A DNA stretch of 62,105 nucleotides from an uncultured Gammaproteobacteria bacterium (GCA_964520615.1 CAZFNL010000120.1:1-62105); one strand, 5' to 3'. Positions 4,463 to 60,105 are shown, counted from the stretch's first letter. Numbers and translations are program-made. Notes: generated from the letters alone by a model not told the origin.

Positions 4463-5566
4463 ATGAGCCAATCATTAAATTATCAGAGTAAACATTTCCA
4501 ATTCGGCTCTTTTGAATCGCACCCTACTTGTCTATTTCTACGTTCTATGTTGGACAGTATTAAAGAACCGTTTATTATAGGCATTGCTGGGGACAGCGGA
4601 AGCGGCAAGACTGTTTTTAGCGATGGAATCAGGAGGCTACTAGGTGAAAGCGTAGTCAAAACGATTGAAATGGACGGTTATCACAAGGAAAATAGGGCCG
4701 AACGCTTAAAAACTGGCCATTTGCCCTTAGATCCATCTATAAACAAACTTGATCTATTACATCAGCACCTGACAGACTTGAAAAAGGGAAAAGCAGTAGA
4801 GATTCCTGTGTATAATCATGCCACAGGTGATTTTGATAATCCAAGACCGTTTGCTCCTGCTCCAATTATTATAATTGAAGGGCTTCATGCTCTTTATCCT
4901 GAATTTCTACCTCTTCTGGATCTGAGTATCTATGTTGATCCGTCTAGGGAAGTAAAATGGAAATGGAAATACAGACGGGATATGGAAAAAAGAGGCCATG
5001 CTGCAGAAAAACTGATAGAAGAAATGCTCAAACGTGAAGCAGCTTATAAAAGATGGGTAGATTTCCAAAAGACAAGCGCCAATATCGTCATTAAAGTAAA
5101 TCTTACCCAAATGGCAAACTATGCCCGATATGAAATGGTCTATGCCATGCCGGAGATGTCCTACAAAGTAGAATTAATTATCCAACCCTCACAAAAACCA
5201 TTACCCAGCCTTATGCTTCCTCTTAATATGGGAGCAATACTTGATAACAACCAACCTCCTTTTCTTCTAGCAGCTGTTCCCAGTCTATATTGGGGAAGAA
5301 AAGTTATGGATGTTATCATTGATGGCTTACTTCCTGAACAGACAATAGCCAGTCTGGAAAATTTTATTGTCAGCTGCACAGGAATCCCGATAAGTGAGGC
5401 AATGAAGAGTGAAGCAAAGGATCTGAAATACGACAGCAGCAATGTCTCAGCTACCAGATTTGCCCAGCTTCTGATTGCCTGGCGGTTTTTGGAACAGGTC
5501 AACTGGAAATATAATGAACTTAGGGAGGGATATACCCAACGTAGTTCAGTTTGCAACGCAAAATGA
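4463..5566 (+). CDS. prk: Phosphoribulokinase (PRK/uridine kinase family, archaeal-PRK-like); alternative start at 4547
   Basis: IIGIAGDSGSGKT P-loop, DGYH, YNHATGDFD, IIEGLH, RRDMEKRG; adjacent to RuBisCO. Confidence 0.8.
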   Translation: MSQSLNYQSKHFQFGSFESHPTCLFLRSMLDSIKEPFIIGIAGDSGSGKTVFSDGIRRLLGESVVKTIEMDGYHKENRAERLKTGHLPLDPSINKLDLLHQHLTDLKKGKAVEIPVYNHATGDFDNPRPFAPAPIIIIEGLHALYPEFLPLLDLSIYVDPSREVKWKWKYRRDMEKRGHAAEKLIEEMLKREAAYKRWVDFQKTSANIVIKVNLTQMANYARYEMVYAMPEMSYKVELIIQPSQKPLPSLMLPLNMGAILDNNQPPFLLAAVPSLYWGRKVMDVIIDGLLPEQTIASLENFIVSCTGIPISEAMKSEAKDLKYDSSNVSATRFAQLLIAWRFLEQVNWKYNELREGYTQRSSVCNAK

Positions 5567-5622
5567 ACTTACGGAGGGTTATACCGATACATTTAATTGC
5601 GAATTCAAGTAAAAGAGGTATA
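5531..5622. mobile_element. Short palindromic insert bounded by TATACC...GGTATA, overlapping the prk 3' end
   Basis: TATACC 5531-5536, GGTATA 5617-5622; imperfect hairpin 5531-5583. Confidence 0.4.
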
Positions 5623-5631
5623 GCCTACCCC

Positions 5632-5694
5632 TTCCTTATCTGCTGGAGGTTTCTGGACCAGGTCAACTGGAAATATAATAATTTAAGTCTATAA
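5632..5694 (+). pseudogene. Recoded duplicate of the prk C-terminus (FLICWRFLDQVNWKYNNLSL*)
   Basis: Aligns to 5468-5530; 21-bp identity 5495-5515 vs 5659-5679. Confidence 0.85.
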
Positions 5695-5695
5695 A

Positions 5696-7084
5696 TCAGT
5701 AAACTATTTTAGGCTCCGTTCCCCATAGCTTTACTGCCTCAGATAGCGCGCTGTCTGGATGGGCTGCAACAAATTCCTTAACCGATTGGCCGTCAGTGAT
5801 GGCTTTTCTTGCCTCAAGAGCTGCTTCGACTCCTCTTTCCGCGCCTTTGGGATGACCTAATACTCCGCCTCCCATCTGTATATAACAGTCTTTACCCATC
5901 TTGCCCATCACCATATCCATTACTCCCGGATGTAATCCTCCGGAAGCGACAGGCCAAACCGTCTTTTTACCAAACCAGTTCTGTCCCAACGTATGGAATT
6001 TTGTATTTGGCTCTGTCATATCTTTTGTCAGAATACGCATAATCTCCTCACTCTCTCCATAATCTTCCATCTTGGCCTTGGGAGAACCACTGTGAAGGCT
6101 ATCAACTCCCAAAAGTCTGTATATTTTGGCGAGCACAATCATGGAAATACTAAAACCTTGCAGGCTACCCACACCAGTTATTCCGCTACCGCTTTCCCTG
6201 GTCATAAATGCATGCATTGCCCGATGTGCATGAATAATAAGCTCGGGATTCTTAAGCCTCATGGTATGGACTGCCGCCATACCGGTCGTCACCACATCTA
6301 TCATCATGCACCTGCCGCCATTTTCCTTTATTAGGTTTGCCCGATAAATCATCGTATCAAGATTGGAATGCGTCAGATTACATAGATAAATTTTTTTCTT
6401 GCCGCCTTTTTCCTCAAGCTCCCTTTGTACAGCAAGAACAAGTTTTGCCCTATCGTCAAACTTGTTGAATGGCAGACTGGTTAGATTCTCATCATCTTTA
6501 ATGAAATCATAAGTCCCATCACCTGCAGTCCAAAGTCTTCTGGCTAAATCTGCCTGTTCCTGAGCCGTCCTTCCCACTTTGGGTTTTGGCACAGTTCCCA
6601 ATATCGGCATCCTTCTTTGATCTTCATCCTGGGCAAGCATATCCCTGACTCCTTCAATACCATATCTGGGTCCGGGAAATGCATCTACCATTTTCTTTGG
6701 AAATCTCATATCAAAAATTCGAAGCCCCTTCACCATCTTCATCCCGCCAATATTTCCGGCGGGCCCCGCCAAATAACCTGACATATTGTCATATTCAAAC
6801 AAGTCCACTTTATAGGCCACCTTAAACATATGGTTGATTTCATCTAGATCGTATACTATAGCTTTGTAATCATCCGCCACCTTTATACCTGAGTCTGGAC
6901 GATCCTCTACCTTTGTCCAGGTACCTGTGGATGATTCAGCTGCCACAGAGGCTGCAGCATCCCTGAAGTTTGAGGGGTCAATATTATCCGCAAGCTCCAT
7001 CTTGAATTGAACCAACACATAATTCTCATCCGGATTCTCAGGTTGCCAGCCTTCCCGCGCAATATAATTTAATTGGACAGCCAT
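5696..7084 (-). CDS. rbcL: RuBisCO large chain, Form III-related, catalytic residues present
   Basis: AAESSTGTW, GN, GTVPKPKVG, DFIKDDEN, HAHRAMHA, HSGSPKAKME, SGG, GGG; AGGAGG RBS. Confidence 0.93.
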   Translation of the reverse strand: MAVQLNYIAREGWQPENPDENYVLVQFKMELADNIDPSNFRDAAASVAAESSTGTWTKVEDRPDSGIKVADDYKAIVYDLDEINHMFKVAYKVDLFEYDNMSGYLAGPAGNIGGMKMVKGLRIFDMRFPKKMVDAFPGPRYGIEGVRDMLAQDEDQRRMPILGTVPKPKVGRTAQEQADLARRLWTAGDGTYDFIKDDENLTSLPFNKFDDRAKLVLAVQRELEEKGGKKKIYLCNLTHSNLDTMIYRANLIKENGGRCMMIDVVTTGMAAVHTMRLKNPELIIHAHRAMHAFMTRESGSGITGVGSLQGFSISMIVLAKIYRLLGVDSLHSGSPKAKMEDYGESEEIMRILTKDMTEPNTKFHTLGQNWFGKKTVWPVASGGLHPGVMDMVMGKMGKDCYIQMGGGVLGHPKGAERGVEAALEARKAITDGQSVKEFVAAHPDSALSEAVKLWGTEPKIVY

Positions 7085-7209
7085 AAAATTTACCTCCTAT
7101 TAAAAAAATAACTGATACTTATCCAGTATATCTTTTTGGAAAGTAAAAATGCAACTAAGGAAAAGAGTACATAAGTATCGTTAAACAATGGATGATGTGA
7201 AATCAACCG

Positions 7210-8388
7210 TTATTCTGTACAATTTGTACCCAAACCGCCTACGCAGTTTTCTGTGGGAGGTTTACCTCTCTCAGGGCATTTGAGGGAATAAATGCACGCG
7301 TCATTTGTGACTGAATCTATTTGTTTAGTGATATTGACTTGGCTATCATTTCCGTAAGTGATAAGAATCCTGTCTAAATCGTCTGGTACGTATTTATCAA
7401 ACTGATTATTTTCTTTTCCATTCACGTACATTTTCAAAGTTTTGCCGCTTATATTACAATATTTTTTACCATTATCCATGGCAAAACAATCATTACTTAA
7501 CTGCATTTTCAAAGATTTGAAAAACTCTCCAAGAGTCACATCCTTTTTGTGAAAATGGATTATGTTCCCATTGCCGTCATGAAGGTGCACATACGGATCA
7601 AGTTCCTTGCCTTCAACCGATTGGTATTTTGCTAAAGAAAAATCTACAGGTATATCATTCAGATAGACCTTAAAATCAACATGAATGTGGTAAGCTTCCG
7701 CTGCCGGCGGCTGGGTAATAGGGATATCTTTTATTGCAGTTTTAACCAAATTACTGAATTCATCAAAACCAGAAGGATTATTCAGTTTGACTCCGTTAAG
7801 GTAAAAAGTCGGAGTAGCATCCACCCCCAAAGAATTGGCATCATCCACGTCTTCTTGTATAAGATCCTGTACTTTCTTTGAGTCTATATCGGCTTTGAAT
7901 TTATTAGCATCTATGTGAAGCGTCTGAGCATATTTGTCAAAAGTGTCTCTAGGATTACCTAAATCAGACCATTCAGATTGGTTCTCATAAAGGAGATTAT
8001 ACATATCAAAAAACTTCCCCTGCAGACCTGCCGCCACTGCAGCCTGTGCCGCTATCTGGGCATTTTGGTGAATTGAAGTAAGAGGGAAATTACGGAAGAC
8101 AAAATTTAGTTTTCCCTTGAATTGGTCTAGTACTTGCTGGACAATCGAATGATACGCTCCGCAAGCCGGACACTGGAAATCCCCAAATTCCACCAGCGTC
8201 GCCTGGGCTGATGGAGAAGATATCTTCTCACTGTCGGCTCTGACCAAAAGATCAGAATTCACCTTGGGACCGGAAAGGTTATTATTGTTTGAAGATTTGT
8301 TTCCTGAAGAAGATAACATCACCGCGGCCACAATAACCAAAACCGTGACAATAATTGTGCCTATAATAAATTTTTTTTCGCCTGACAT
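7210..8388 (-). CDS. Membrane-anchored DsbA-family thioredoxin with extra His/Cys-rich C-terminal domain
   Basis: N-term TM; EFGDFQCPACG, FRNFPL, GVDATPTFYLNG; C-term HIHVDF/HLHD/HFH and 4 terminal Cys. Confidence 0.85.
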   Translation of the reverse strand: MSGEKKFIIGTIIVTVLVIVAAVMLSSSGNKSSNNNNLSGPKVNSDLLVRADSEKISSPSAQATLVEFGDFQCPACGAYHSIVQQVLDQFKGKLNFVFRNFPLTSIHQNAQIAAQAAVAAGLQGKFFDMYNLLYENQSEWSDLGNPRDTFDKYAQTLHIDANKFKADIDSKKVQDLIQEDVDDANSLGVDATPTFYLNGVKLNNPSGFDEFSNLVKTAIKDIPITQPPAAEAYHIHVDFKVYLNDIPVDFSLAKYQSVEGKELDPYVHLHDGNGNIIHFHKKDVTLGEFFKSLKMQLSNDCFAMDNGKKYCNISGKTLKMYVNGKENNQFDKYVPDDLDRILITYGNDSQVNITKQIDSVTNDACIYSLKCPERGKPPTENCVGGLGTNCTE

Positions 8389-8471
8389 GTTTTATCCGTA
8401 TATTTTATTTATTATTCCTCTATAATACAAGACCTTATTAATATATCATGATATACTAAAATGCGCTAAAA

Positions 8472-8891: not shown

Positions 8892-8904
8892 AGAAAGACA
8901 GACC

Positions 8905-9558: not shown

Positions 9559-9568
9559 CAAAATATTC

Positions 9569-10774: not shown

Positions 10775-10892
10775 ATTGTTTCCAAACCTTAAAAACTTAT
10801 TACTTTTGAAATCATATCATTGTCAAAGTAAAAAATGTATACCATTAAAATTCCCTATTGAAAAGGAAAAAATGATATATAATAATTGAGCT

Positions 10893-11330
10893 ATGGCCAA
10901 ACAAACAAAGCCGGATAAAAGCGGTAGAATTTCGGCCGTATATTTCGTAAGCTATATACTCATTGGAATTATCATATCTTTTATATATAGTGTAATAGTA
11001 GTCTACCTCCTTAATCCGTCAGTATATAGATTAATTCCACTCCTTGGAAGAGCTGACCAAGTAATTTTCCCCCTAGTCATTGTCCTTCTTGATACCTTTA
11101 TTGCGTCAAAAATGATAAAAAGCAAATACGAAATAGAAAAACCTGACAGGGTAGCATTATTATCAACTATATATGTTCTTGTCTTCAGCCTTATTTTTAT
11201 GCTGCCGATGTTAACGCAGAAAATTAGCGGTATCCCCAATACCAGGAACCTATTGCCTACTCTTATATCCTCAGCCTTGGAAATTCTGCTTTTTTATTTC
11301 TTCAGCTCCTTATTCTTAAGAAAGAAATAG
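10893..11330 (+). CDS. Hypothetical membrane protein
   Basis: 145-aa ORF with about 4 TM segments. Confidence 0.6.
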   Translation: MAKQTKPDKSGRISAVYFVSYILIGIIISFIYSVIVVYLLNPSVYRLIPLLGRADQVIFPLVIVLLDTFIASKMIKSKYEIEKPDRVALLSTIYVLVFSLIFMLPMLTQKISGIPNTRNLLPTLISSALEILLFYFFSSLFLRKK

Positions 11331-11463
11331 TGAAGCGCTCCCCGAGCTTACGCTCGGGGCATCAGCCCGATCGGCCATTCGCAGCGCGAAACCCCGCACC
11401 GAATGCCCGCTAGAAGACCATTCATCCCACGGGTTGACACCCGGGGCATTCTGGTGCGGGGGT
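11331..11463. repeat. GC-rich multi-hairpin REP/PATE-like element
   Basis: CCCCGAGC-ttac-GCTCGGGG 11340-11359; long stem 11392-11408 with 11444-11461; inner hairpin 11430-11443. Confidence 0.7.
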
Positions 11464-11640
11464 AAAACAGATTATCTATTTTCTTTATCCTTAGAATTTA
11501 TTTCAAAATGTTATTTTAAGTCTATATTAGAGCTTTCTTTCAGGCTTAATTTGCAGGTTTTGGAACCAGTTCTAGACTTTACAGAGAAAAAAATCGTTTC
11601 TATAATGTAATCGTTGTTTAATAATAACAAGTAATCTTTG

Positions 11641-13065: not shown

Positions 13066-13094
13066 ATTATTTAAATTTATAAGAAAGGGTAGTC

Positions 13095-13653: not shown

Positions 13654-13724
13654 TTTCTACTAAAATATCCGCATTAAATTGAAGGTAAAAGAAGGTTTTG
13701 TGGTGGCAATCTTTTACAGATTAA

Positions 13725-14195
13725 ATGACTACTTCCGACATAAAAAAAGAGGAAAACGTAATCATATCGGCGCAAAAGGAAACGCAAACGAAAAATATCA
13801 GCGGATCTCCCGGCCAACCTGACACAAAACCATTGGTTAATTCACCGGCTGTGGCTGATACTCCAAACTGCCCATTTTGCCATCTCCCTCGTCAGCCAAA
13901 CTATTTCTTTTGCCCAAACTGCGGCAGTAAACTGAAGCAGATACCACTGTCTGTATCAATAGGAAAACAAATTAGCATATACCTTATAAGTATTTTCCTG
14001 CCGCCGCTTGGGTATATATGGGGTTACAGATACCTGCGGCAGGAAAGCGCAACTGCCAAAAAAATAGGACTTCTCGCAATTGTCCTGACAACACTGTCAA
14101 TTGTTTTATCCCTTTGGGCTACAAAAGGACTAATTGATACAATCAATCAGACTCTCAATAAACAAATGGCGCCATACCAGAATCTCGGCTACTAA
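13725..14195 (+). CDS. Zinc-ribbon membrane protein
   Basis: CPFC..CPNCG plus two TM segments. Confidence 0.75.
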   Translation: MTTSDIKKEENVIISAQKETQTKNISGSPGQPDTKPLVNSPAVADTPNCPFCHLPRQPNYFFCPNCGSKLKQIPLSVSIGKQISIYLISIFLPPLGYIWGYRYLRQESATAKKIGLLAIVLTTLSIVLSLWATKGLIDTINQTLNKQMAPYQNLGY

Positions 14196-17618: not shown

Positions 17619-17669
17619 TTACTCATGTCTCAAAGCTTCAATCGGGGATAAATCAGCGGCTTTCCCGGC
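17619..17669 (-). pseudogene. Recoded duplicate of the ABC permease C-terminus (AGKAADLSPIEALRHE*)
   Basis: Aligns to 17695-17745 (ARKAADLSPIEALRYE*), offset 76. Confidence 0.88.
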
Positions 17670-17694
17670 ACGTATTCCCGTAATATTTCTCCTG

Positions 17695-18918
17695 TTATTC
17701 ATATCGTAACGCTTCTATCGGAGATAAATCTGCCGCCTTACGTGCTGGATAAAGTCCGAATACTATTCCTATACCCGCCGATACACCTATTGCCAAAATT
17801 ATAGCCGATAGGGATAGGGTAAACGGCAGGCTTATAAAATGAGAAATTACAAATGACAACCCCGCACCCAAAAACATCCCTATTACGCCTCCGACAAAGG
17901 TTAGAATAATAGACTCAGCAAGAAATTGGGAAATAACCGTCCTCTTCTTGGCTCCTAGGGCTTTTCTCAAACCTATTTCCCTTGTCCTTTCTGTTACTGT
18001 CACAAGCATGATATTCATAATTCCGATTCCCCCGACAAGAAGAGATATGGCGGCAATTCCGGAAAGAAGCGCGCTGAAAGTACCTGTCACCTGGGATGCA
18101 GCTCCCAATATGTCAGCCTGGGAAAATATGCTGAAATCTGCCTGTGCGGGATCTTTTATCTTATGTCTGGTCAGAAGAAAATAGCCTACTTGGTTTTCCG
18201 CCTGTGTCATAACGTCCGTACTCTTGGCGGAAACGGAAATATTACTCACATAATCCACTCCGTATAACTGATGTTGTGCGGTGGTAAGAGGAACATAAAC
18301 AATATCATCCTGATTGGCAAATCCCGATCCGCCCTTGGAGACTGTTACGCCAACCACTCTGAAAGCCTGCTTGTTTATTCTTATGGACTGTCCGACCGGA
18401 TCTGCTCCGTCACCGAAAAGATCACTTACTACCTGCGGACCCAAAACGGCTACTTTCTCCTCACTGTCTACATTATTCTGGCTTATAAATGCGCCTGAAG
18501 ACATTGTAATGTTGCGTACGGCAGCATATGCCGGAGTAACCCCGGCTATCTGTGTATTCGTATTGTTTCTGCCCGCTGTTACCTGTCCTCTCCTTGTCAG
18601 TTCAGCCGACACGTTACTTACCGTTGTCACATCAGGTGATGATAAAATAGCTTTTGCGTCATCATAAGTAAGTGAAGTGTCCCCTCCGGCTGCCCCCCTG
18701 ACCCCGCCGGTTGTTGAAGCACCCGGTATAACAGTCAGAAGATTGGATCCCAAAGATTCAATCTGCGACTGCACCGCTTTTTGTCCGGCCTGGCCCAAGG
18801 AAATGAGCGCAATAACGGCCCCGATACCAATTACAATACCGAGAGTTGCCAGGGCTGTACGCATTTTATTCAAAGTCAGAGCATTTATACTTTCGGCGAG
18901 AAGTTCTCCAAAATCCAT
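17695..18918 (-). CDS. MacB/FtsX-like ABC permease
   Basis: GIVIGIGAV, GGIGIMNIMLVTVTERTREIGLRKALGA, PIEALRYE. Confidence 0.93.
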   Translation of the reverse strand: MDFGELLAESINALTLNKMRTALATLGIVIGIGAVIALISLGQAGQKAVQSQIESLGSNLLTVIPGASTTGGVRGAAGGDTSLTYDDAKAILSSPDVTTVSNVSAELTRRGQVTAGRNNTNTQIAGVTPAYAAVRNITMSSGAFISQNNVDSEEKVAVLGPQVVSDLFGDGADPVGQSIRINKQAFRVVGVTVSKGGSGFANQDDIVYVPLTTAQHQLYGVDYVSNISVSAKSTDVMTQAENQVGYFLLTRHKIKDPAQADFSIFSQADILGAASQVTGTFSALLSGIAAISLLVGGIGIMNIMLVTVTERTREIGLRKALGAKKRTVISQFLAESIILTFVGGVIGMFLGAGLSFVISHFISLPFTLSLSAIILAIGVSAGIGIVFGLYPARKAADLSPIEALRYE

Positions 18919-18922
18919 ATTT

Positions 18923-19621
18923 TTAAATCTTAATTTTTAAATGTTTTCCGTTTTTCTCATCCTTAATAATTTTACCGTCGCGCACGGTAATAATCCTTTT
19001 TGCAAACTTTGCAATTGATGGTTCATGCGTAATCATAATCACTGTATGTCCTTTCCTGTTCAAATCGGAAAAAATTTTCATGATCTCTTCACTTTGACTG
19101 GTTGCCAGATTTCCCGTGGGTTCATCAGCCAGAAGTATGGCAGGATCCATGGCAAGTGCTCGGGCTATAGCGACTCTCTGCTGCTGACCTCCTGAAAGCT
19201 GGTTTGAATTATGGTGTAATCTGTCTCCAAGACCGACCATTGTCAGCAACTCAGTGGCTCTTTTTTCCCTGTTCTCTTTAGGATAAGCAGCGTAAGTGAG
19301 TGGTAACATCACGTTTTTCAGTGCGGAAGTTCTGGGAAGAAGATTAAAAGCCTGAAAGACAAAACCTATTTTTTTGTTCCTGATCTCAGCCAATTCATCA
19401 TCCGTAAGTCCTTCTATATCCTGGCCGTCAAGTATATATTTACCAGAGGTGGGTGTATCAAGGGCACCAAGCATATGCATAAGCGTGGACTTTCCGCTTC
19501 CTGAAGGACCCATGATGGCAACATACTCTCCTTTGTTTACCTCAAAATTGATATCTGACAGGGCTACAGTCTGTACACCATCCATTTTGTAGATTTTGGT
19601 AAGATGCGTGACTTTGATCAT
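18923..19621 (-). CDS. ABC ATP-binding protein (MacB/LolD-like)
   Basis: GPSGSGKS, LSGGQQQR, LADEPTG. Confidence 0.93.
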   Translation of the reverse strand: MIKVTHLTKIYKMDGVQTVALSDINFEVNKGEYVAIMGPSGSGKSTLMHMLGALDTPTSGKYILDGQDIEGLTDDELAEIRNKKIGFVFQAFNLLPRTSALKNVMLPLTYAAYPKENREKRATELLTMVGLGDRLHHNSNQLSGGQQQRVAIARALAMDPAILLADEPTGNLATSQSEEIMKIFSDLNRKGHTVIMITHEPSIAKFAKRIITVRDGKIIKDEKNGKHLKIKI

Positions 19622-19694
19622 AAATTATTCCTGACATAATACTTTCTTTAATTCCCCAATTTTTTGTCTGTTTATTTTCACTTATGTTGATTTA

Positions 19695-20984
19695 TTAACC
19701 TCCACGGAATAACACTCTGCCGCCTCCTCCGCCTCCAAACCCTCTGCTGAAAGGTGAACTTCCTCCGCCAGTTGTCGTGCTTGAACCGCTTATGGTACCT
19801 GTTATTATCTGATTACCATCAGACAACCCGGATACTATTTCCGTTTGAGTATCTGATGAAATACCTGTCTGAACCGGCATGCTTACCGGATGTCCGTTCC
19901 GCAGTATCCTGACGTATGACTGGTTACCGCTTGTCTGAATTGCGGATGAAGGAACCATTAGTACATTATTCTTTGTGGCCGTTATTATATTGGCTGTTGC
20001 AGACATATTTGGTAATATATCTGCGGAAGTTGGATCTAATGTAATCGTAAGAGGATAATTAGTTACTCCACTACTCACTACACCCGTCCTGTCTACTCCG
20101 GAAACTGTTCCGGTAAAAGTCATATTTGGGAAAGCATCCAAAGTGATAGTGGCTTTTTCTCCTTCTTTTATGGTACCTACATCAATTTCCGCCACACTGA
20201 ACTGACCAGCTATGGTATTTCCGGTTGTAATTGTGGCAATTTTCTGGGACACTGCAGCACTGCTCTGACTGTTTGTCTGGGAGGCCAATGTCATACCGGG
20301 CACCAGAGTAATGTCGCCCACTATACCTGCTGCCGGAGCCGTAATAGTAGCGGAAGCAGCCTGATAATTGAGCCAGGAATTGGACAAAGCTGCCTGGTCC
20401 TGGGCGATAACATCCTGCTGGTTCTTATAATCTGCCTCAGCCTTAAGCCAGTTATCGTAAACTTCATAAAATTGCGGTAAAGTCCTGTTGGCTGTATTTG
20501 GAGAATTGTCAGAATTCTGGTATGTGGAGTTTTGTGCAGTGTCCATATATGTCTTCCAGTCTCCCATCATTGTTGACTGAAGACTGTATAGTTTGGCATT
20601 GTCCGACGCCAAACTGTTTTTTGCCGATAAATAGCTTGCGTAAGCCTGTTGCTGACGCTGTAATCCAACGGAGTCTGGCGTGACGGTCAAGAGTGTCTGT
20701 CCCTGACTAACCTTGTCACCGTTTTTCACCAGAATATCTTTTATAATTCCTGAAGCCTGGGAAGTAACAGTCATCTTACCGGATGTGGCTATCTGCCCGG
20801 AAACGGAAATTGAGGACACTATCGTACCTTTCGTAACTTTTGTTGTCTGATACTGAACAGTCTGTTGAGCTCCCTTTACTTTTTGCCAAGCAAAGAATAT
20901 AACCGCCAAAAGGAGAATAATAACAACTCCTGCTTTTAACCGGTTTTTAAAAAATTCTGAAAGAAACGTTTTTATCGTCTTCAT
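19695..20984 (-). CDS. Efflux periplasmic adaptor (MacA/HlyD-like)
   Basis: N-term TM, VKNGDKVSQGQTL, ITAPAAG, ILPNMSATA, VQTGISSD. Confidence 0.88.
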   Translation of the reverse strand: MKTIKTFLSEFFKNRLKAGVVIILLLAVIFFAWQKVKGAQQTVQYQTTKVTKGTIVSSISVSGQIATSGKMTVTSQASGIIKDILVKNGDKVSQGQTLLTVTPDSVGLQRQQQAYASYLSAKNSLASDNAKLYSLQSTMMGDWKTYMDTAQNSTYQNSDNSPNTANRTLPQFYEVYDNWLKAEADYKNQQDVIAQDQAALSNSWLNYQAASATITAPAAGIVGDITLVPGMTLASQTNSQSSAAVSQKIATITTGNTIAGQFSVAEIDVGTIKEGEKATITLDAFPNMTFTGTVSGVDRTGVVSSGVTNYPLTITLDPTSADILPNMSATANIITATKNNVLMVPSSAIQTSGNQSYVRILRNGHPVSMPVQTGISSDTQTEIVSGLSDGNQIITGTISGSSTTTGGGSSPFSRGFGGGGGGRVLFRGG

Positions 20985-21000
20985 AAAAAGGATATTAAAA

Positions 21001-21022
21001 GACTTAGCTGAGAATTAGCTTA
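21001..21022 (-). promoter_or_regulatory. 11-bp-period direct repeat, putative response-regulator box upstream of efflux operon
   Basis: Minus strand TAAGCTAATTC-TCAGCTAAGTC. Confidence 0.5.
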
Positions 21023-21207
21023 AAATAAAATTGTAGTAAGTGTATTACACATCTCCTTACTCTCTACAAAAATCATTCATGTATAAATATTGTCACATCC
21101 TGACATAAAATAAAAGCGAAAACAGATTATAAACGGATTTCTACCCTAGATAGAATAAAATTTTCCTTCAGCCCTGCAGACTTAAACCTTATAATTCCTA
21201 CAAAGAA

Positions 21208-27483: not shown

Positions 27484-28347
27484 ATGAAATCAGGTTATGT
27501 AGCGATTGTCGGCCGACCAAACAGCGGCAAATCAACGTTGCTGAATAACATTTTGGGTCATAAGGTCTCCATCACCTCACCAAAACCTCAAACTACAAGA
27601 TTTCCCATTCAGGCTGTCTATGAAGACGATAGAGGACAAATAATCTTCATCGACACTCCGGGAGTCTTTGGGAAAGTTCATGACCCGTTGTCTAAATCCA
27701 TTAATCCCATGGCCCAAGAGACATTGTCACAAGGACCGGACGTGGTAGTATATCTAGCTGATCACACTAGAGACCGCGATATGGAAGAAAATAAATCGTT
27801 GGGTTTGGTACGGAATATCAATACTCCTAAAATTTTGGCAATAAATAAGATTGATATTAAAAAACCTACATACCTACCCCACTATAAATTCATGGAAGAA
27901 GAATTTGACAAAACTGTAATGATATCCGGGCTTTACAAGAATAACTTGAATTACCTGCTTGATGCAATTTTTGAACTTTTACCTGAAGGAAAAAAAATAG
28001 TAAATGCTACCGATAGACCGACTCCAGCTCTTAATATAGACAGTAAAATATACATTGCAGAAATTGTGAGAGAAAAAGCCTTTCTTTTTTTACGCAAGGA
28101 AGTGCCCTATTCTCTGACGTGCCTCGTGGATGAGATAACTCACCGTAATAACAATATGGTATATATAAAGGCACGAATTATTACTTCAGCAGACAGGTAT
28201 AAAAAAATGATTATTGGAGAAAACGGCCGGATGGTTAAGGAAATCGGTATGGCTGCAAGAAAAGAGTTGGAAACAGCCACTAACCAGAAAGTTTATATCA
28301 ATATTCAGGTAGAAACAAACCCTCACTGGATTGACCAATTAACTTAA
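27484..28347 (+). CDS. era: GTPase Era
   Basis: GRPNSGKS, PQTTR, DTPG, NKID, KH-like IIGENG. Confidence 0.96.
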   Translation: MKSGYVAIVGRPNSGKSTLLNNILGHKVSITSPKPQTTRFPIQAVYEDDRGQIIFIDTPGVFGKVHDPLSKSINPMAQETLSQGPDVVVYLADHTRDRDMEENKSLGLVRNINTPKILAINKIDIKKPTYLPHYKFMEEEFDKTVMISGLYKNNLNYLLDAIFELLPEGKKIVNATDRPTPALNIDSKIYIAEIVREKAFLFLRKEVPYSLTCLVDEITHRNNNMVYIKARIITSADRYKKMIIGENGRMVKEIGMAARKELETATNQKVYINIQVETNPHWIDQLT

Positions 28348-28371
28348 ACTCAATAGTTTATACCTGTACTT
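28339..28371 (-). pseudogene. Recoded duplicate of the rdgB C-terminus (KYRYKLLSLS*)
   Basis: Aligns to 28414-28446 (KCRNKLLSLY*), offset 75. Confidence 0.6.
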
Positions 28372-28413: not shown

Positions 28414-29004
28414 TCAGTATAAACTCAAAAGCTTGTTCCGACATTTCAATAGCGCGCGGGCTCTGTGACTAACGTTGTTTTTTTCCGCTGGTGACGCTTC
28501 AGCATTAATTTTTTCTAAATCAAAATTATAGAAAATCGGATCGTACCCGAAACCATTTTTACCGCTTGGCTTTTGTGTAATACATCCTTCACTTTCCCCT
28601 CGGAATGTAAAAACCTTGTCTTCTTGAGGATTATAAAGAGCAACAACGGCTATAAATCTGGCTGTTCTTTTCTTTTTCGGGATACCTGACATTTCCTTTA
28701 ATACCTTTTTAACCCTATCTTCATCAGTTCCCATCGTATATCTAGCAGAATAAATTCCCGGTTTTCCACCAAGGGCATCCACCTCCAAACCAGAATCATC
28801 TGCCAAAGTCATTAGTCCCGTCTTTCTCCCGATTGTTCTGGCCTTAAGTACGGCATTTTCCTCAAATGTTTTACCTGTTTCTTTCACATCAGTATCATCT
28901 CCGAAATCCGAAAGAGACAAAATATCAAAAGGAAGGCCGGAGAATATTTCTTTTATTTCCCGCATTTTACCGGGATTTTTGGAGGCAATCAGAATCTTAG
29001 ACAT
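28414..29004 (-). CDS. rdgB: Non-canonical purine NTP pyrophosphatase
   Basis: SKNPGK, ETGKTFEENA, DDSGL, GFGYDPIF, SHRARA. Confidence 0.95.
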   Translation of the reverse strand: MSKILIASKNPGKMREIKEIFSGLPFDILSLSDFGDDTDVKETGKTFEENAVLKARTIGRKTGLMTLADDSGLEVDALGGKPGIYSARYTMGTDEDRVKKVLKEMSGIPKKKRTARFIAVVALYNPQEDKVFTFRGESEGCITQKPSGKNGFGYDPIFYNFDLEKINAEASPAEKNNVSHRARALLKCRNKLLSLY

Positions 29005-37804: not shown

Positions 37805-38120
37805 ACCCAAAAAAAATCCCACCTTTTTCTAAGGGTGAGACTATCACGGTACCACCTTATTTTGGTTATGAGTGATGTTTAGCGGGTGATGGGTTTTTAA
37901 TGATCATATTTCGTAACCCACAACTCACAACTTATCCCGCCTCAGCGGGATCCATAATGCTTTAAGACTCAATAATTTTTCAACAGCATCGGGACATACC
38001 CACAACTACTTATTCCAGCTATCACGGGCATACCCGGCAAGGATCTAATTTCCGACTATGTGGATTTCTTCCTGCAGCTTGTTAGAAAAATCTAACTATG
38101 GCGTGTCGTCGCCATTGTAG
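37805..38120 (-). ncRNA. T-box riboswitch (tRNA specificity not resolved)
   Basis: Antiterminator AAGG-UGGUACC-GUGA...UCAC-CCUU at 37831-37858 overlapping a terminator with U-tract (37809-37840); GCCCGUGAUA stem II-like motif at 38020-38029; 5' boundary uncertain. Confidence 0.8.
37934..37951. repeat. REP-like palindrome inside the T-box leader
   Basis: ATCCCGC-ctca-GCGGGAT. Confidence 0.65.
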
Positions 38121-50194: not shown

Positions 50195-50195
50195 T

Positions 50196-52097: not shown

Positions 52098-53167
52098 AAA
52101 AGAAAATAGCATTATTAGCAGGAGACGGTGTAGGCCCGGAAGTAACCAGAGAAGCGGTAAAAGTACTGAAAAAAGTCGGGGAGGAATTCAATCACCAGTT
52201 TATCTTTCAGGAAGGTCTTATAGGTAGTATTGCCATAGATAAGACTGGCGGCCCGCTCCCGCCTGAAACTCTGAAACTCTGTAAAAGTTCCGATGCTATA
52301 CTTTTTGGCGCAATTGGAGATCCAAAATATGACAACAACCCTGAAGCAAAAATAAGACCAGAACAAGGCCTTTTGAAATTGCGTAAATCTCTTGAACTTT
52401 TTGCCAACATCCGTCCAATTATACTATTTGAAAACTTATCAGAAATCTCACCACTCAAAAAAGAAAGAGTAGAAGGAGTTGATATGGTTGTTGTCAGAGA
52501 ACTTACTGGAGGTATCTATTTTGGCCAACCAAGGTTGCGGAAAAATAAGGGAAATACTGCAGTTGACACGTCAATTTATTCAAAAGAAGAAGTCATAAGA
52601 ATTGCTAAAGTAGCTTTTAATCTTGCACAAAAACGCCAAAAAAGAGTCACAAGCATCGACAAAGCCAATGTACTTGAAACATCAAGATTGTGGCGGGAAA
52701 CTGTGGAAAAAGTTGCCCGAAGTTTTCCATCAGTAACACTAAATCATATGTTTGTTGATAATGCCGCCATGCAAATAATTAAAAATCCGGCGCAATTTGA
52801 TGTCATTTTAACGGAAAATATGTTTGGGGATATCCTTACTGACGAAGCATCAGTTATAAGCGGGTCTATTGGCCTTCTTCCGTCAGCCTCAATAGGCGAA
52901 AAATACTCCTTATTTGAACCAATCCATGGTGCCTATAACAAAGCGGTAGGAAAAAATACTGCAAACCCCTTGGCTGCCATCCTCTCTATAGTAATGATGT
53001 TAAGGATTAGTTTCCGTATGGAAAATGAGGCAAAAATCGTAGAAAAAGCTATTGGGAAATTTATCAAATCAGGCTACCGCACTCACGATATAAAAGACAA
53101 AAATACGCCTGAAAGTAAAATCTTGGGCACAAAAGAGACAGGGGATAAAATAGTCTCTTGTATCTAA
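52094..53167 (+). CDS. leuB: 3-isopropylmalate dehydrogenase
   Basis: GDGVGPE, VRELTGGIYFG, DKANVL, NMFGDILTDEAS, EPIHG. Confidence 0.96.
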   Translation: MKKKIALLAGDGVGPEVTREAVKVLKKVGEEFNHQFIFQEGLIGSIAIDKTGGPLPPETLKLCKSSDAILFGAIGDPKYDNNPEAKIRPEQGLLKLRKSLELFANIRPIILFENLSEISPLKKERVEGVDMVVVRELTGGIYFGQPRLRKNKGNTAVDTSIYSKEEVIRIAKVAFNLAQKRQKRVTSIDKANVLETSRLWRETVEKVARSFPSVTLNHMFVDNAAMQIIKNPAQFDVILTENMFGDILTDEASVISGSIGLLPSASIGEKYSLFEPIHGAYNKAVGKNTANPLAAILSIVMMLRISFRMENEAKIVEKAIGKFIKSGYRTHDIKDKNTPESKILGTKETGDKIVSCI

Positions 53168-53186
53168 TAATTCCAAAGAATAATTT

Positions 53187-53495
53187 TTACGATATTTTGA
53201 CTCCTACGAAATCAATCTTTGGAAAATAAATCCTGACTTCCTTCCAAAATTTATCAGCAAGCCCTGCCGAAAACACTCCGTATTGTCCCCGTTCGCTTTG
53301 ACTGCACAACTTTCTTTCCCATTCCCTAATCTCATCTACTACTTCCTTACCTAGCTTGTTGAATTCATTTTCATACTTGACGGGATCAAGCATATAACTG
53401 TCATGTATGCGCTTAAACTCGGTAAAAAGATATTCATTCTTATCCATCATTTCTCGAAAATATTTTTGGTATTTGGTCATATTTTTGTCAGCCAA
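53187..53495 (-). CDS. Conserved hypothetical protein
   Basis: 102-aa ORF; EIREWERKLC..FWKEVR. Confidence 0.65.
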   Translation of the reverse strand: MADKNMTKYQKYFREMMDKNEYLFTEFKRIHDSYMLDPVKYENEFNKLGKEVVDEIREWERKLCSQSERGQYGVFSAGLADKFWKEVRIYFPKIDFVGVKIS

Positions 53496-54400
53496 GCGGC
53501 ATATTTCTTATCCTTGCCACGGACAATGTCAAAAAAAAGTTTTTGAATTTTCCCCGTAATTGGCCCCATTCCCCCTTCACCTATTGTCCGTCCGTCAACC
53601 TCTGTAATCCAAGCGACTTGAGCTCCGGTCCCGGAAAGGAAAGCTTCATCAGCTATATAAACTTCTGTCCTGTCTATTTCTCTTTCCTCAATAGAAATCT
53701 TTAATTCACCCGCCAATTCTAGAATAGTTCTCCTTGTTATACCTTCAAGGACATCATTATATTTTGGGCTTGTTATAAGTATCCCGTCCCTTATCATAAA
53801 GAAATTTGCCCCACTTCCCTCAGCCAAATGACCGTCGGAAGAAAGCATAAGAGCGTCATCACAACCCAGTTTAGCTGCATCCCCTTTAGCAAGGGAAGAA
53901 TTGATATATCCTCCCGTCACTTTAGCCCGGGAAGGAATCATATTATCATTTATCCTGACCCAATTGGAAATAGCCAGCTTCAAACCCTTACTCACGGGCA
54001 AATATTCTCCCAGAGGAATCATATACATGGCAAAATCAAATTCCAGTTTACTTAAATCAGGTGAAATTTCAAAATTCTTGGCATAAGCAAATGGACGGAA
54101 GTAACAATCGGTTCTAGGATTGTTTTTCCTGGCCAGTTCCACTGTGATATCAATAAGATGTTTCTGGCTATATCGAATAGATTTATTTAAAATTTTCAGG
54201 GAACTTAAAAATCTTTTATAGTGGTCACTCACTCTAAAAATATTTACAGATCTTTTACCCTCGGCAACGTACCCTCTTATACCGCCAAAAATACCATTGC
54301 CGTATTGGAGAGCATTGGTCATGATGTTGACACGTGCAAGCTCAGTAGGAACTATTTTCCCCTCAAAAAAAGCAAAAGGGAAAGATTTTGATTCAGCCAT
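53477..54400 (-). CDS. ilvE: Branched-chain amino acid aminotransferase
   Basis: LQYGNGIFGG, AKVTGGY, EGSGAN, LEGITR, LSGTGA. Confidence 0.93.
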   Translation of the reverse strand: MAESKSFPFAFFEGKIVPTELARVNIMTNALQYGNGIFGGIRGYVAEGKRSVNIFRVSDHYKRFLSSLKILNKSIRYSQKHLIDITVELARKNNPRTDCYFRPFAYAKNFEISPDLSKLEFDFAMYMIPLGEYLPVSKGLKLAISNWVRINDNMIPSRAKVTGGYINSSLAKGDAAKLGCDDALMLSSDGHLAEGSGANFFMIRDGILITSPKYNDVLEGITRRTILELAGELKISIEEREIDRTEVYIADEAFLSGTGAQVAWITEVDGRTIGEGGMGPITGKIQKLFFDIVRGKDKKYAAWLTKI

Positions 54401-54406
54401 ATTATT

Positions 54407-54835: not shown

Positions 54836-54871
54836 AATAGTACCTCCTTACAATAAAGTTTATATTCACTA

Positions 54872-56749: not shown

Positions 56750-57789
56750 TTTTCAGGACGCAGAGACCTTACAGTAGCGCCTGCCCTCCACATCTCCATA
56801 TTTCTCATTTCTGACAATTCTTTTTCAAGTTTTTTCCTATAATCCTTTGCTGAATTTGCCTTCAATACTCGTTGTGCTTCTTTTCCGATCTTGACAGAAG
56901 AATAGAGCCTCCTGAAAACCGGAGCTACAGCGTCTCTAAACTCTCCTTTCCAATCAAGAGCACCTCTTTGAGCGGTAGTTGAACAGTTGGCATACATCCA
57001 GTCCATTCCGTTTTCCGCAACCATCCTGATAAGACTTTGGGTCAACTCTTCCACTGTTTCGTTAAAAGCTTCAGATGGCGTGTGTCCTCGTCTTCTGAAT
57101 TCATTAAACTGCGCCTCCATTATCCCTTCAAGCGCTCCCATAAGTACTCCCCGCTCCCCTGTCAAGTCGCTGTAGACTTCTTTCTCAAACGTGGTTTCAA
57201 AAAGAAAACCTGATCCCACACCGATACCCATTGCCATAACTCTCTCCTTTGCCCGGCCTGTAGCATCTTGGAAGACGGCAAAACTACTATTTATCCCGCT
57301 TCCGGCAAGGAAATTCTGCCTTACAGATCTTCCAGCACCTTTAGGAGCTATAAGGATAACGTCTGTATCTTTTGGAGGAATAATCTTGGTATATTTCCTG
57401 TAAGTGATACCAAATCCGTGGGAAAAATAGAGTGCTTTACCGGCAGTCAGATATTTTTTCACTTTTGGCCACAGAGCCACCTGCCCGGCATCAGAAAGCA
57501 GATAGGCCAATATCGTACCTTTTTCTGCCGCTTCCTCAATAGAAAAGAGGGTCTTTCCTTTTTTCCACCCATCCTTTACAGCCTTATCCCAGGAAGATGA
57601 AGGTGACCGTTGACCGATAATCACATTCACACCGTTATCTTGCAGATTCATCGCTTGTGCCGGACCCTGAACTCCATAACCAAGTACCGCAACTATTTCA
57701 TTTTTTAATACCTGGCGGGCGCGATCTAGCGGAAACTCCTGCCTCGTCACTACATTTTCGGTAACATCACCAAATTTCATCTTTGCCAT
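56734..57789 (-). CDS. ilvC: Ketol-acid reductoisomerase
   Basis: GYGVQG, SDLTGERGVLMG, AQRGALDW; start MAKM at 57789. Confidence 0.94.
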   Translation of the reverse strand: MAKMKFGDVTENVVTRQEFPLDRARQVLKNEIVAVLGYGVQGPAQAMNLQDNGVNVIIGQRSPSSSWDKAVKDGWKKGKTLFSIEEAAEKGTILAYLLSDAGQVALWPKVKKYLTAGKALYFSHGFGITYRKYTKIIPPKDTDVILIAPKGAGRSVRQNFLAGSGINSSFAVFQDATGRAKERVMAMGIGVGSGFLFETTFEKEVYSDLTGERGVLMGALEGIMEAQFNEFRRRGHTPSEAFNETVEELTQSLIRMVAENGMDWMYANCSTTAQRGALDWKGEFRDAVAPVFRRLYSSVKIGKEAQRVLKANSAKDYRKKLEKELSEMRNMEMWRAGATVRSLRPENWKKK

Positions 57790-57799
57790 AGAAAACTCC

Positions 57800-58288
57800 T
57801 TATTTATATAATGCGGTTCTTCCGGTCCGCACAAACTCAATAATGCCGAATTTCTTCATATTTTCATAAAAGGCATCAATTTTCTCCTCTTCACCGGTAA
57901 TCTCTAGCACCATATATTCTGGATGAATATTTACTACATGAGCTCTAAAATGATCGGCAATGTTGGATACTTCAATTCTAGCTCCTGGCTTTCTTATGGA
58001 AACCTTTAGAAGCGCAAGTTCTCTGGCAACAATTTCTCCTGGTGCTGGATCGCTTACTTTTAAAACTTCAATAATCCGGTAAAGTTGTTTGCTCATTTTC
58101 TCAACAATGTCTTTTTCTCCCCGCACCAATATCGTAAATCGCGAAATCAGGGGATTTTCTGTATGTGATACCGTCAGACTCTCGATATTAAACCGCCTTT
58201 TGCGGATAAGGCCTGCAATCCGGAAAAGGACTCCCGGTCGGTTTTGTACAGACACGATTAAAGTTGACAAATTATTCTTAGTCTCCAT
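57800..58288 (-). CDS. ilvN: Acetolactate synthase small subunit
   Basis: NRPGVL, FNIESL, VRTGRTAL. Confidence 0.93.
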   Translation of the reverse strand: METKNNLSTLIVSVQNRPGVLFRIAGLIRKRRFNIESLTVSHTENPLISRFTILVRGEKDIVEKMSKQLYRIIEVLKVSDPAPGEIVARELALLKVSIRKPGARIEVSNIADHFRAHVVNIHPEYMVLEITGEEEKIDAFYENMKKFGIIEFVRTGRTALYK

Positions 58289-58296
58289 AAATCTTA

Positions 58297-58317
58297 TTTA
58301 CGCTTTACGCTAAACGC
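58297..58317. repeat. Heptamer tandem array (TTTACGC)2-TAAACGC
   Basis: Seen directly. Confidence 0.75.
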
Positions 58318-58322
58318 TAATT

Positions 58323-58358
58323 TTACTCCAGTATAATTTCATCCACGGCCGCACCAGC
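58323..58358 (-). pseudogene. Recoded duplicate of the ilvB C-terminus (AGAAVDEIILE*)
   Basis: Aligns to 58399-58434, offset 76; 17-bp identity block. Confidence 0.9.
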
Positions 58359-58398
58359 ACCACTTTTATAACATATCCTACTAAAACTATGATTATTG

Positions 58399-60105
58399 CT
58401 ATTCTAATATTATCTCGTCCACGGCCGCACCAGCCGGCATCATTGGGAATACATTGGCCTCTGTCTCCACAACAAATTCAATAACAAACGGTCCTTTATG
58501 CGCACGTGCTTTTTTTATTGCAGGTAATATATCCTTTCTGTTTTCTACTTTCACAGCCGGTATCCGGAACCCCTCGCAGAGTTTGATAAAATCGGGATTC
58601 CTCAAAAATACCTCCGAATATTTATGATTGAAAAAAAGATGCTGCCATTGCCGTACCATACCCAAAAAATTATTATTCAGAATTGCTACTTTAATATCTA
58701 TATTTTCCTCTTCAATGGTTGCTAGCTGATTCATGGTCATCTGGAAACTTCCATCCCCAACAATTGCCCAGACTTCGGCCCCAGATCTGCCCAATTTTGC
58801 GCCCATAGCAGCCGGAATGGAAAAACCCATAGTACCTAAACCTCCGGAAGTAAGAAATCTGTCAAGTTTATGAAAATGGTAATATCTGGCGGCTATCATC
58901 TGATGTTGACCCACATCGGCTACAACAACTGCCTCACCCCTCGTCTCCTGATTCAGCTCATTAACCACCTCACCCATTTTGATTTTTCCTTTTTTGGGAT
59001 GGACTTCAACTTGAATAACCTTTTTATCTTCAATCCGGTCATATTTTTTAAATTCCGCAAACCATTCTTTATGCTTTACACGATTGACTAGAGGAATAAG
59101 TTTACCAAGAACATTTTTCACGTCGCCGACAATAGGCACATCTGCTTTTACATTTTTCCCCAGCTCGGCAGGATCAATATCCACATGAACTACTTTCGCG
59201 CCTTTGGCATAAGAAGATAAATTTCCAGTCACTCTGTCATCAAAACGCATACCCAAAGCAATCAGGCAATCAGTTTTATTAGTACACATATTCGGACTAA
59301 GATTCCCGTGCATCCCCAACATTCCTACATAACTTGGATGGTCAACAGTGATACTACTGATTCCATGAAGGGTGGTAGCTACAGGAATATCAGCCTTTCG
59401 TGCAAGCTCATCCAGCTCTTTTTCAGCATGGGAAATGAGGATTCCGTGACCAGCCAAAATATAAGGCTTTTTGCTTTCATTTATAATTTCTGCCGCTTTT
59501 TTAATTTGTATAATATTTCCCTCAACAGTCGGCTTGTATCCGGGAAGATCTAGACTTTTGGGGTAAACAAATTTGCACTCTCTATATTGCGCATCTTTGG
59601 CAATATCAATCATGACTGGACCGGGTCTCCCTGAATTGGCAATATAAAAAGCTTCTCTTATTACATCCGCCACTTCCTCCGGTTTTAGGATAAGATAATT
59701 ATGTTTGGTAATCATTCCCGTCACTCCTACCACATCAGTCTCCTGAAAAGCATCGTTGCCAATGAGATTTGAAACCACCTGGCCGCTAATGCAAACAATC
59801 GGGACTGAATCCATCATGGCATCGGCAATTCCGGTTATCAGATTTGTGGCACCAGGTCCTGAGGTAACGAGGCAAACTCCCGGTTTACCGGTAACTCTAG
59901 CATAGCCTTCAGCAGCGTGAGCCGCACCCTGTTCGTGACGTACCATCACATGATGAAGCTCCGGATATTCCAAAAGCGCATCATAGGTTGGCATGATAGC
60001 ACCCCCTATATAACCAAAAATTGTATCGACTCCCTCACGAAGCAACATTTCACAAAGAATTTCTCCACCGGTTGCGTTCTGTCCTTCTTTTAATCTAGTT
60101 TTCAT
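58399..60105 (-). CDS. ilvB: Acetolactate synthase large subunit
   Basis: RHEQGA, TSGPGATN, FQETD, GDGSFQM..NN, PM. Confidence 0.96.
   Translation of the reverse strand: MKTRLKEGQNATGGEILCEMLLREGVDTIFGYIGGAIMPTYDALLEYPELHHVMVRHEQGAAHAAEGYARVTGKPGVCLVTSGPGATNLITGIADAMMDSVPIVCISGQVVSNLIGNDAFQETDVVGVTGMITKHNYLILKPEEVADVIREAFYIANSGRPGPVMIDIAKDAQYRECKFVYPKSLDLPGYKPTVEGNIIQIKKAAEIINESKKPYILAGHGILISHAEKELDELARKADIPVATTLHGISSITVDHPSYVGMLGMHGNLSPNMCTNKTDCLIALGMRFDDRVTGNLSSYAKGAKVVHVDIDPAELGKNVKADVPIVGDVKNVLGKLIPLVNRVKHKEWFAEFKKYDRIEDKKVIQVEVHPKKGKIKMGEVVNELNQETRGEAVVVADVGQHQMIAARYYHFHKLDRFLTSGGLGTMGFSIPAAMGAKLGRSGAEVWAIVGDGSFQMTMNQLATIEEENIDIKVAILNNNFLGMVRQWQHLFFNHKYSEVFLRNPDFIKLCEGFRIPAVKVENRKDILPAIKKARAHKGPFVIEFVVETEANVFPMMPAGAAVDEIILE

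Follow-up and report, generated by a model that had tools for sequence, protein, structure and literature searches.

In the present study, we analysed a stretch of metagenomic DNA of 62,105 nucleotides (nt), hereafter the window (GCA_964520615.1 CAZFNL010000120.1:1-62105, deposited from an uncultured Gammaproteobacteria bacterium), in which several unrelated genes are followed on their own strand by a second, differently spelled copy of their last codons. The gene end in use is called copy 1 in the following, the second copy downstream of it the shadow, and the spacer between the two X. It is suggested, with a probability of roughly 0.55, that the shadows are resident, formerly working gene ends which were displaced by DNA recombined in from a close lineage. 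If this is true, such ghost gene ends would be readable scars of gene-by-gene allele exchange between diverged ultra-small bacterial lineages, marking the ends of exchange tracts and preserving the former and the present allele side by side; the survival of joints would then be seen to depend on tight gene packing. Relics of this type can pass for regulatory repeats, frameshift sites or errors of assembly. The window sequence was found in three runs of a single mine-drainage metagenome study. It comes from a Patescibacteria (Gottesmanbacteria-like) genome of the ultra-small type of the Candidate Phyla Radiation (CPR), and the closest relatives of its proteins carry such labels in their sources.

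Shadow gene ends in the window

A preliminary description of the window had listed four genes with such ends, which Pfam assigned to PRK (prk), a MacB_PCD/FtsX permease, Ham1/RdgB (rdgB) and the large subunit of acetolactate synthase (ilvB). The last 25 codons of 77 open reading frames (ORFs, at least 100 amino acids (aa)) were compared in three frames with the next 400 nt, and for the null distribution 1051 gene ends, taken from the window and from 111 fetched loci, were each paired with the downstream DNA of another gene. The permease, ilvB and prk pairs scored 69, 54 and 50, far above the maximum of 35 in this re-paired control, with all other hits at 34 or below, and no direct repeat within 600 nt anywhere in the window is longer or stronger than these three. 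The rdgB pair, with a score of 29-30, lies at the noise level and is plausible only through its offset of 75 nt and its aligned stop, since about 0.01 chance hits at 75-77 nt with an aligned stop are expected across the 77 ORFs; it is probably an old shadow. The same scan gave a fifth case which had not been listed before, namely the end of ilvE, displaced by 356 nt. The coordinates and offsets given earlier (76 nt for the permease, 76 for ilvB, 75 for rdgB and 164 for prk) were correct, and so was the alignment of the stops between the copies in permease, ilvB and rdgB. The residue count changed slightly on recounting: 44 of 51 sense codons keep the same residue, with 22 recoded and 7 changed, in place of 45 of 52, 23 and 7.

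For comparison, two relatives of the window, L026 and L029, were available as Logan contigs from another study (the same protein also occurs on an NCBI contig of 355 kb). Both run collinear with the window from about 2000 to 28900, and the identity is 93-95% across most of this stretch.

The permease gene, of the MacB/FtsX type, lies on the minus strand and ends with RKAADLSPIEALRYE and a stop codon (copy 1, 17695..17742). An X of 28 nt (17667..17694) separates this stop from the shadow, GKAADLSPIEALRHE plus stop (17619..17666), which stands at offset 76 in frame +1 and differs from copy 1 at 12 nt. The gene belongs to a macAB-like operon of membrane fusion protein, ATPase and permease (17695..21200, minus strand) that is only about 78% identical to L026 in the background of 93-95%, and the BLAST alignment over this tract breaks at the last base of the copy-1 stop, that is, at the junction. 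Between the permease gene and the following peptidase gene L026 has 48 nt and no shadow, compared with 119 nt in the window, and its 48-nt spacer matches the post-shadow spacer of the window at both ends. The permease site of L026 is thus an empty site. As a separate observation, L026 itself has a 50-nt insert at the end of its histidine-kinase gene (L026 7675-7724, corresponding to about 21212 of the window), composed of a diverged copy (4 transitions) of the 22 nt around the stop and a hairpin ending GATGAATG; this insert bounds the tract of about 78% identity on the left, and the permease shadow of the window bounds it on the right.

The ilvB gene, also on the minus strand, ends with AGAAVDEIILE and a stop (58399..58434). 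An X of 40 nt (58359..58398), with no similarity to its flanks and a fold z of +1.2, is followed at offset 76 by the shadow, which again reads AGAAVDEIILE plus stop (58323..58358). In relatives of 74-76% identity 1-4 nt separate the ilvB stop from ilvN, as against 110 nt (76 + 34) in the window. A search of species-representative genomes for an empty ilvB site gave a best match of only 51% identity (Bacteroidales), which was of no use. In L116, a relative with 76% identity in ilvB, a GC-rich hairpin, GTCCCGCCAAAGGCGGGAC (3225-3292), takes the place of ilvN behind the stop, and the contig ends before any old ilvB end could be seen. The rdgB gene (Ham1, minus strand) ends with KCRNKLLSLY plus stop (28414..28446), and its possible old shadow reads KYRYKLLSLS plus stop (28339..28371, minus strand); the pair is unchanged in L026. 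The copy-1 stops at 17695, 58399 and 28414 all precede a C (TAA C, TAG C and TGA C), and the shadow stops precede T or A. The shared C may belong to the insert as its opening base, or it may be a coincidence (about 0.01).

On the plus strand, the prk end in use, LIAWRFLEQVNWKYNEL (5471..5524), continues into a structured insert of 115 nt (5522..5636) and closes there with REGYTQRSSVCNAK and a stop at 5564-5566. The insert forms an outer stem, AGGGAGGG/CCCTTCCT, with two inner hairpins, and none of 200 shuffles was as stable (z -3.9). It holds a 24-nt direct repeat (5513-5536 and 5562-5585, period 49) coding for a further tail, NELTEGYT..., and it is followed at offset 164 by the shadow, LICWRFLDQVNWKYNNLSL plus stop (LICWRFLDQVNWKYNNL; 5635..5694, aligned span 5635-5688). 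It had been proposed that 164 equals 76 plus an 88-nt insert bounded by TATA. The arithmetic is right, and TATA stands at 5531-5534 and 5619-5622, but nothing supports the 88 nt as one insert: no empty site, terminal inverted repeat or second copy of this stretch was found, and the 49-nt repeat unit permits another decomposition of 164. Relatives have a gene for a 218-aa HAD hydrolase between prk and the RuBisCO gene (L029 6485-7222), where the window has 175 nt (5521-5695) with the structured insert and the prk shadow. Adjoining prk and divergent from it lies a gene for a 403-aa protein (3141-4352, minus strand) with a TnsA-like endonuclease N-terminal domain (Pfam E 8e-8), which is also found in relatives, with lengths of 382 and 405 aa in two strains.

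At ilvE (minus strand) the end in use, KLFFDIVRGKDKKY.. (53501..53542, stop at 53477), is followed by a gene of 97 aa, ORF97 (53187..53480), whose ATG overlaps the ilvE stop and which lies between ilvE and leuB. The displaced end, KLFFGIIRYKRLFY (53145..53186, minus strand), comes directly behind it, and the pair reads KLFFDIVRGK.. and then, 356 nt downstream, KLFFGIIRYK... In relatives, including L112, ilvE and leuB overlap tail to tail with no gene between them. The ORF97 family comprises 134 cluster representatives with a conserved C-terminus and no assigned function. ORF97 has moved, because in other Gottesmanbacteria a gene of this family sits between surE and an epimerase gene. The idea of ORF97 as a phage gene or a nuclease was rejected, as no viral locus, no PHROG and no Pfam match was found for it.

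The junctions are present in reads. The permease protein was found exactly on two Logan contigs from two runs, in which 200 nt spanning both copies are identical to the window, and the ilvB junction lies inside contigs of three runs (depth 21, 44 and 17) with zero mismatches, indels or alternative joints; the depth at the junctions is the same as in the flanks. Since Logan contigs derive from a k = 31 graph with no scaffolding, every word across the joints is present in the reads. Chimeric scaffolding, named earlier as a worry, is therefore refuted by assemblies of three runs which span the junctions at 17-44x.

Coding history and proposed displacement of resident ends

In order to compare the copies with random decay, the observed number of differences was placed at random in copy 1 and the preserved residues were counted. 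Preservation was beyond random decay in each pair (P 5e-5 for permease, 5e-5 for ilvB, 2e-3 for prk, 4.5e-4 for rdgB and 1e-4 for ilvE). Nine of the 12 nt differences between the permease copies fall in residue-keeping codons, and 7 of the 12 are transversions, by which a transition bias (deamination) was rejected as the source of the silent changes in this pair. In ilvB, an identical block of 17 nt is followed by 7 differences within 22 nt, all of them silent and one turning TAG into TAA; they are of mixed kinds (C/T, G/A, A/T, T/C and A/G) and not confined to adenine. The earlier statement that no diversity-generating retroelement is at work agrees with these results, since the changes are neither adenine-specific nor, in the permease, transition-biased. 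No reverse transcriptase was found among the 20 ORFs scanned, of about 60 in the window.

The residues themselves also point to close lineages. Both ilvB copies of the window share DEIILE plus stop, and all 60 listed relatives end with R(L/I/V/M)E or a similar R-containing tail. The WKYN of the prk shadow is shared only by the window lineage and P0121, a relative of 94% identity, and the ADLSPIEALRYE of the permease (ADLS) is found in 4 of 120 relatives. All of these 120 end with ...PIEALR(Y/F)E, and the permease shadow has H in place of Y/F. Because the residues are preserved and the lineage-specific residues are shared, the view is supported that both copies were once working gene ends, in diverged but closely related lineages. 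The codon tests and the shared residues together uphold what had been claimed before, that both copies evolved as protein in diverged lineages.

We propose the following course of displacement. The donor would be a lineage about 20% different at the DNA level, and the incoming piece, which may have been taken up by natural transformation, would consist of its own gene end and a little of the donor's downstream DNA. On the gene side it would be joined by homology, and on the far side out of register, illegitimately, a few dozen bases upstream of the resident stop. As a result the gene would end in the imported version, presumably copy 1, and the old end would stay put, before or overlapping the neighbouring gene. 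The DNA gained in this way would amount to 28-40 nt where the unit is of 76 nt, to a stretch rich in hairpins at prk and to an entire gene of 97 aa at ilvE. Under tight packing only such joints would spare both genes, and it is proposed that the scars are seen across stop codons because only such joints keep both genes intact. Natural competence has been shown in the CPR for Saccharibacteria (PMC10633639).

The positions of the shadows fit this course. They lie 42 nt before the peptidase gene (permease), 34 nt before ilvN (ilvB), 1 nt from the stop of the convergent RuBisCO gene (prk), across the stop of the convergent era gene with an overlap of 9 nt (rdgB) and across the 3' end of the convergent leuB (ilvE). 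Every shadow would thus stand where the original end is expected relative to its neighbour. The permease and ilvB shadows are followed by the resident spacer and then by the next gene, and the ilvE shadow overlaps the leuB end as the working ilvE does in L112. A reason for the survival of the shadows would also follow, as the joint had to fall upstream of the neighbour's end or signals.

Mosaic identity gives further support. Towards L029, prk shows 91-100% identity up to 5394 and then 51-88% to its end, and the RuBisCO gene shows 71-84% over its last 200 nt or so and 89-98% further in. The result is a diverged patch of about 500 nt from the prk end to the rbcL end, which lies over both gene ends and therefore fits an exchange of the intervening piece with the gene ends as arms. 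The proposal that the shadows mark junctions of homolog swapping gained support in this way from the empty permease site of L026, from the 78% tract ending at the junction and from the prk-rbcL patch; a switch of identity across the junctions is seen at the permease (93-95% against about 78%) and likewise at the prk/RuBisCO patch.

The spacer of the permease agrees with a donor flank. Read from an ATG that overlaps the stop, X gives MNNRRNITGI, and a comparison with codons 7-13 of the resident peptidase gene shows agreement in 15 of 19 nt (p 0.013, uncorrected). The peptidase ATG overlaps the permease stop likewise in L027, L032 and L039. No resemblance of X to the permease coding sequence upstream was seen (p 0.49). 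Hence, X looks like the start of a donor peptidase gene of the overlapping type.

Several results weigh against displacement of resident ends. The match of the permease X to the peptidase gene has a p of 0.013 before correction for six tests, and the ilvB X resembles nothing, the ilvN starts of relatives included. The codon P values of rdgB and ilvE are inflated, as these pairs were picked by residue similarity. By hand count, the two permease copies agree with the permease end of L026 at 38/45 and 36/45 positions, and because neither is close to it, the direction of replacement is unproven and L026 may be the one that was replaced. Towards L029, the prk shadow has 72% identity and copy 1 has 80%. 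The end of ORF97 coincides with the joint (TAA|AAATTA), rather neat for illegitimate joining. A donor carrying copy 1 together with X was not found among 127 loci, which left no sequence in which a microhomology at the joints could be read. Finally, if joining were illegitimate on one side, the overlap lengths should scatter and not come to 76, 76 and 75.

Spacing near 76 nt and rival explanations

The lengths of duplicate and spacer are 48/28, 36/40 and 33/42 in permease, ilvB and rdgB, with sums of 76, 76 and 75. Three of five offsets within two bases would be expected with a p of about 0.002 (hand estimate, log-uniform over 40-400 nt). A wider set of 1.15 Mb of fetched loci outside the window was also compared. 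In L040, from another CPR metagenome, the last 75 nt or so of a 170-aa gene are repeated at offset 77 (13690-13840, score 38); this copy is decayed and retains L, D, G, G, N, I, Y and Y, several of them through different codons. Hits of at least 26 at 75-77 nt outside the window were three (L040 with 38, L046 with 28 and L052 with 26) against 1.0 expected (p about 0.09), and only L040 is convincing, the other two, at 76-77 nt, lying at the noise level. The spacing of 75-77 nt is real as a statistic, and displacement of resident ends leaves it unexplained. No feature able to measure 76 nt was found in the sequence. The length-defined mechanism put forward in the preliminary description could not be established, as the same permease end elsewhere in the CPR has units of 50-51 nt, and ilvE and prk have offsets of 356 and 164.

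Of the rival explanations, a local tandem duplication of a fixed length of about 76 nt (by slippage, an unprocessed flap or a staggered cut), surviving only across stops and with its copies refreshed by later exchange with relatives, fares best, and we consider it rather unlikely. The constant sum, though the parts vary (about 75/2 in L040 beside the three pairs above), speaks for it, and L040 resembles a pure tandem copy of 77 nt, spacer included, with a score above the null maximum (38 compared with 35). Internal copies would be lost, as 76 is not a multiple of 3, and the mosaic identity shows that exchange is frequent. The spacers argue the other way. The idea that X copies either the flank behind the shadow or the coding sequence one unit upstream was rejected for permease, ilvB and rdgB (p 0.37-0.99); the sole match of the permease X, 62-81 nt after the shadow, is in the wrong register, and the post-shadow permease spacer is common to L026 and therefore old. 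We know of no slippage process of fixed length.

A second possibility, somewhat less probable again, is that the units are tiny non-autonomous mobile cassettes that carry a spare end of the target gene and were inserted by a nuclease or recombinase acting in trans. The permease end of other CPR loci gives it substance. L032 (1590-1714) has two extra ends of the type IEALRYE plus stop with periods of 51 and 50 nt, each spelled differently and each behind a hairpin, and L039 (11200-11275) has one such extra unit behind a hairpin. The hairpin, AATCCT-GAGCnTGTCGA-AGGATT, is conserved with compensating stem changes, and its core occurs twice in the unrelated GC-rich locus L081 (1311-1351). The final IEALRYE copy contains the ATG of the next gene. 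The 50-nt histidine-kinase insert of L026 is likewise a 22-nt diverged duplicate with a hairpin, the prk insert is strongly structured, and a 132-nt GC-rich hairpin element lies 1 nt past a stop codon of the window and is absent from L026. Two or more kinds of unit exist, therefore, and the 76-nt units of the window are of the plain, hairpin-free kind.

The plain units speak against such cassettes. The folds of the 75-76-nt units of permease, ilvB and rdgB are not significant (z +0.75, +1.16 and +0.07), and no terminal repeats were seen in them. They share no sequence with each other, and no second copy of any X was found in the window or in the 1.15 Mb of loci; the permease X resembles ordinary donor flank. 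The units contain no tRNA or Rfam family at gathering score, which nothing in the whole window reaches, they hold no integrase and no ORF, and neither in them nor beside them was a nuclease or recombinase gene found; the gene with the TnsA-like domain near prk is also present in relatives. A shared spacer motif, TTCTACCTGAA, follows two of the shadows and was rejected as not above chance.

The third possibility, of slim probability, is a length-measuring step in recombination, in which, for example, the last 76 nt or so of an incoming single strand might remain unpaired and be ligated as is, a length of about one wrap of a tetramer of single-stranded-DNA-binding protein. Should it hold, replacement would leave a donor/resident overlap of 75-77 nt, kept only where it spans a stop or start codon. 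Traces of natural transformation could then be counted in uncultured bacteria by means of the shadows, and the mode near 50 nt would possibly reflect another binding mode. If the constant of 75-77 nt holds genome-wide, it would point to a novel measuring step of this type.

An assembly artefact, in which the versions of one gene end from two co-occurring strains were concatenated and an overlap of k-1 = 76 was kept, has hardly any probability left. It deserved attention, as 76 equals k-1 at k = 77, two alleles in tandem would mimic silent recoding exactly and the sample is metagenomic. However, the contigs of three runs cross the permease and ilvB junctions with 0 differences, at the depth of the flanks and with no alternative joint. 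An overlap in the graph would give an exact 76-mer, whereas the real copies are 78-83% alike and X matches nothing, and a different lineage, in the runs of another study, has the rdgB pair as well. The artefact is thus close to refuted.

A stop codon followed by C is a weak context for termination. Use of the shadow by a +1 shift at the stop, reading through X into a longer protein with a second C-terminus, can practically be set aside: both 76-nt shadows are in frame +1 and open from the copy-1 stop to the shadow stop, and a C follows all three copy-1 stops, but the frame of the rdgB shadow is 0 and a second stop follows two codons later, the idea suits neither prk nor ilvE, a repeated tail brings no evident benefit, the H of the permease shadow stands at a position where 120 relatives keep Y or F, and a slippery motif is absent.

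Known systems and further observations

The shadows are best read as the outcome of recombination that had its anchor of homology inside the gene and its other joint, beyond the gene, out of register. Homology-facilitated illegitimate recombination is reported for naturally transformable Acinetobacter, S. pneumoniae and P. stutzeri (PMC3240628). As in that process, and as in the displacement of rhs/cdi C-termini, displacement of resident ends would place a homology anchor in a conserved gene and the other joint out of register, foreign DNA would be gained with the resident end left as a relic, and the hosts are likely competent. A tract of donor type ending at the joint is present at the permease (about 78% against 93-95%) and at the prk/RuBisCO patch, with the recipient genome ambiguous. 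The window differs in that the gain is as short as 28-40 nt and the overlap nearly constant, 75-77 nt in three cases, and in that the donors would be close relatives supplying the same housekeeping gene; microhomology and the donor are not demonstrated here.

Integrative elements such as e14 and phage 21 in the icd gene of E. coli, and islands in tRNA and tmRNA genes, supply a replacement 3' end of their target gene. In these, as in the window, the gene works with a diverged copy of its end, altered in silent positions, and its original end stands just beyond the insert. By contrast, the units of the window have neither an integrase nor room for one, no att core is common to the sites, and their size is 76 nt, not kilobases. 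Between the two copies at a site, identical blocks of 17 nt in ilvB and 21 nt in prk were seen, and the permease has none above 8 nt. The inserts measure 28-40 nt (permease, ilvB and rdgB) and 115 nt (prk), and ORF97 at ilvE matched neither Pfam nor PHROG. The earlier comparison with integrating elements therefore stands for the outcome, that is, diverged duplicates of a gene end flanking an insert, and fails for the machinery; the likeness is in outcome only.

The WHO elements of Torulaspora and Lachancea yeasts are treated by Coughlan et al. 2020 (PMC7282813). On that account, repeated events stack old gene ends downstream, as seen in the three IEALRYE ends of L032, with one relic per gene in the window. 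Unlike the shadows, WHO elements are described there as encoding a driving endonuclease, which was found neither in the units of the window nor in ORF97, and the host here is bacterial. Repetitive extragenic palindromes and miniature inverted-repeat transposable elements (REP/MITE) are comparable to the small gene-less inserts right behind stops, namely the prk insert, the element at 11332-11463 and the hairpin modules of L032, L039 and L026. They differ from the permease, ilvB and rdgB units, which have no hairpin or repeated sequence, and REP/MITE carry no copy of a neighbouring gene end. Among the units, a stable hairpin is found only in the prk insert (z -3.9) and in L032/L039.

Two further features of the window were seen. 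At 37828-38025 (minus strand) a T-box leader matches the full model of Rfam RF00230, but at 28.5 bits it stays well below the gathering score of 93 (E 2e-4, search of 700 nt). The 132-nt element at 11332-11463 is cleanly absent from L026 and shows no target duplication. It begins 1 nt after the stop of the ORF at 10893-11330 and is a GC-rich insert of nested hairpins, with CCCCGAGC..GCTCGGGG as one pair of arms and ACCCCGCACC..GGTGCGGGGT as the other.

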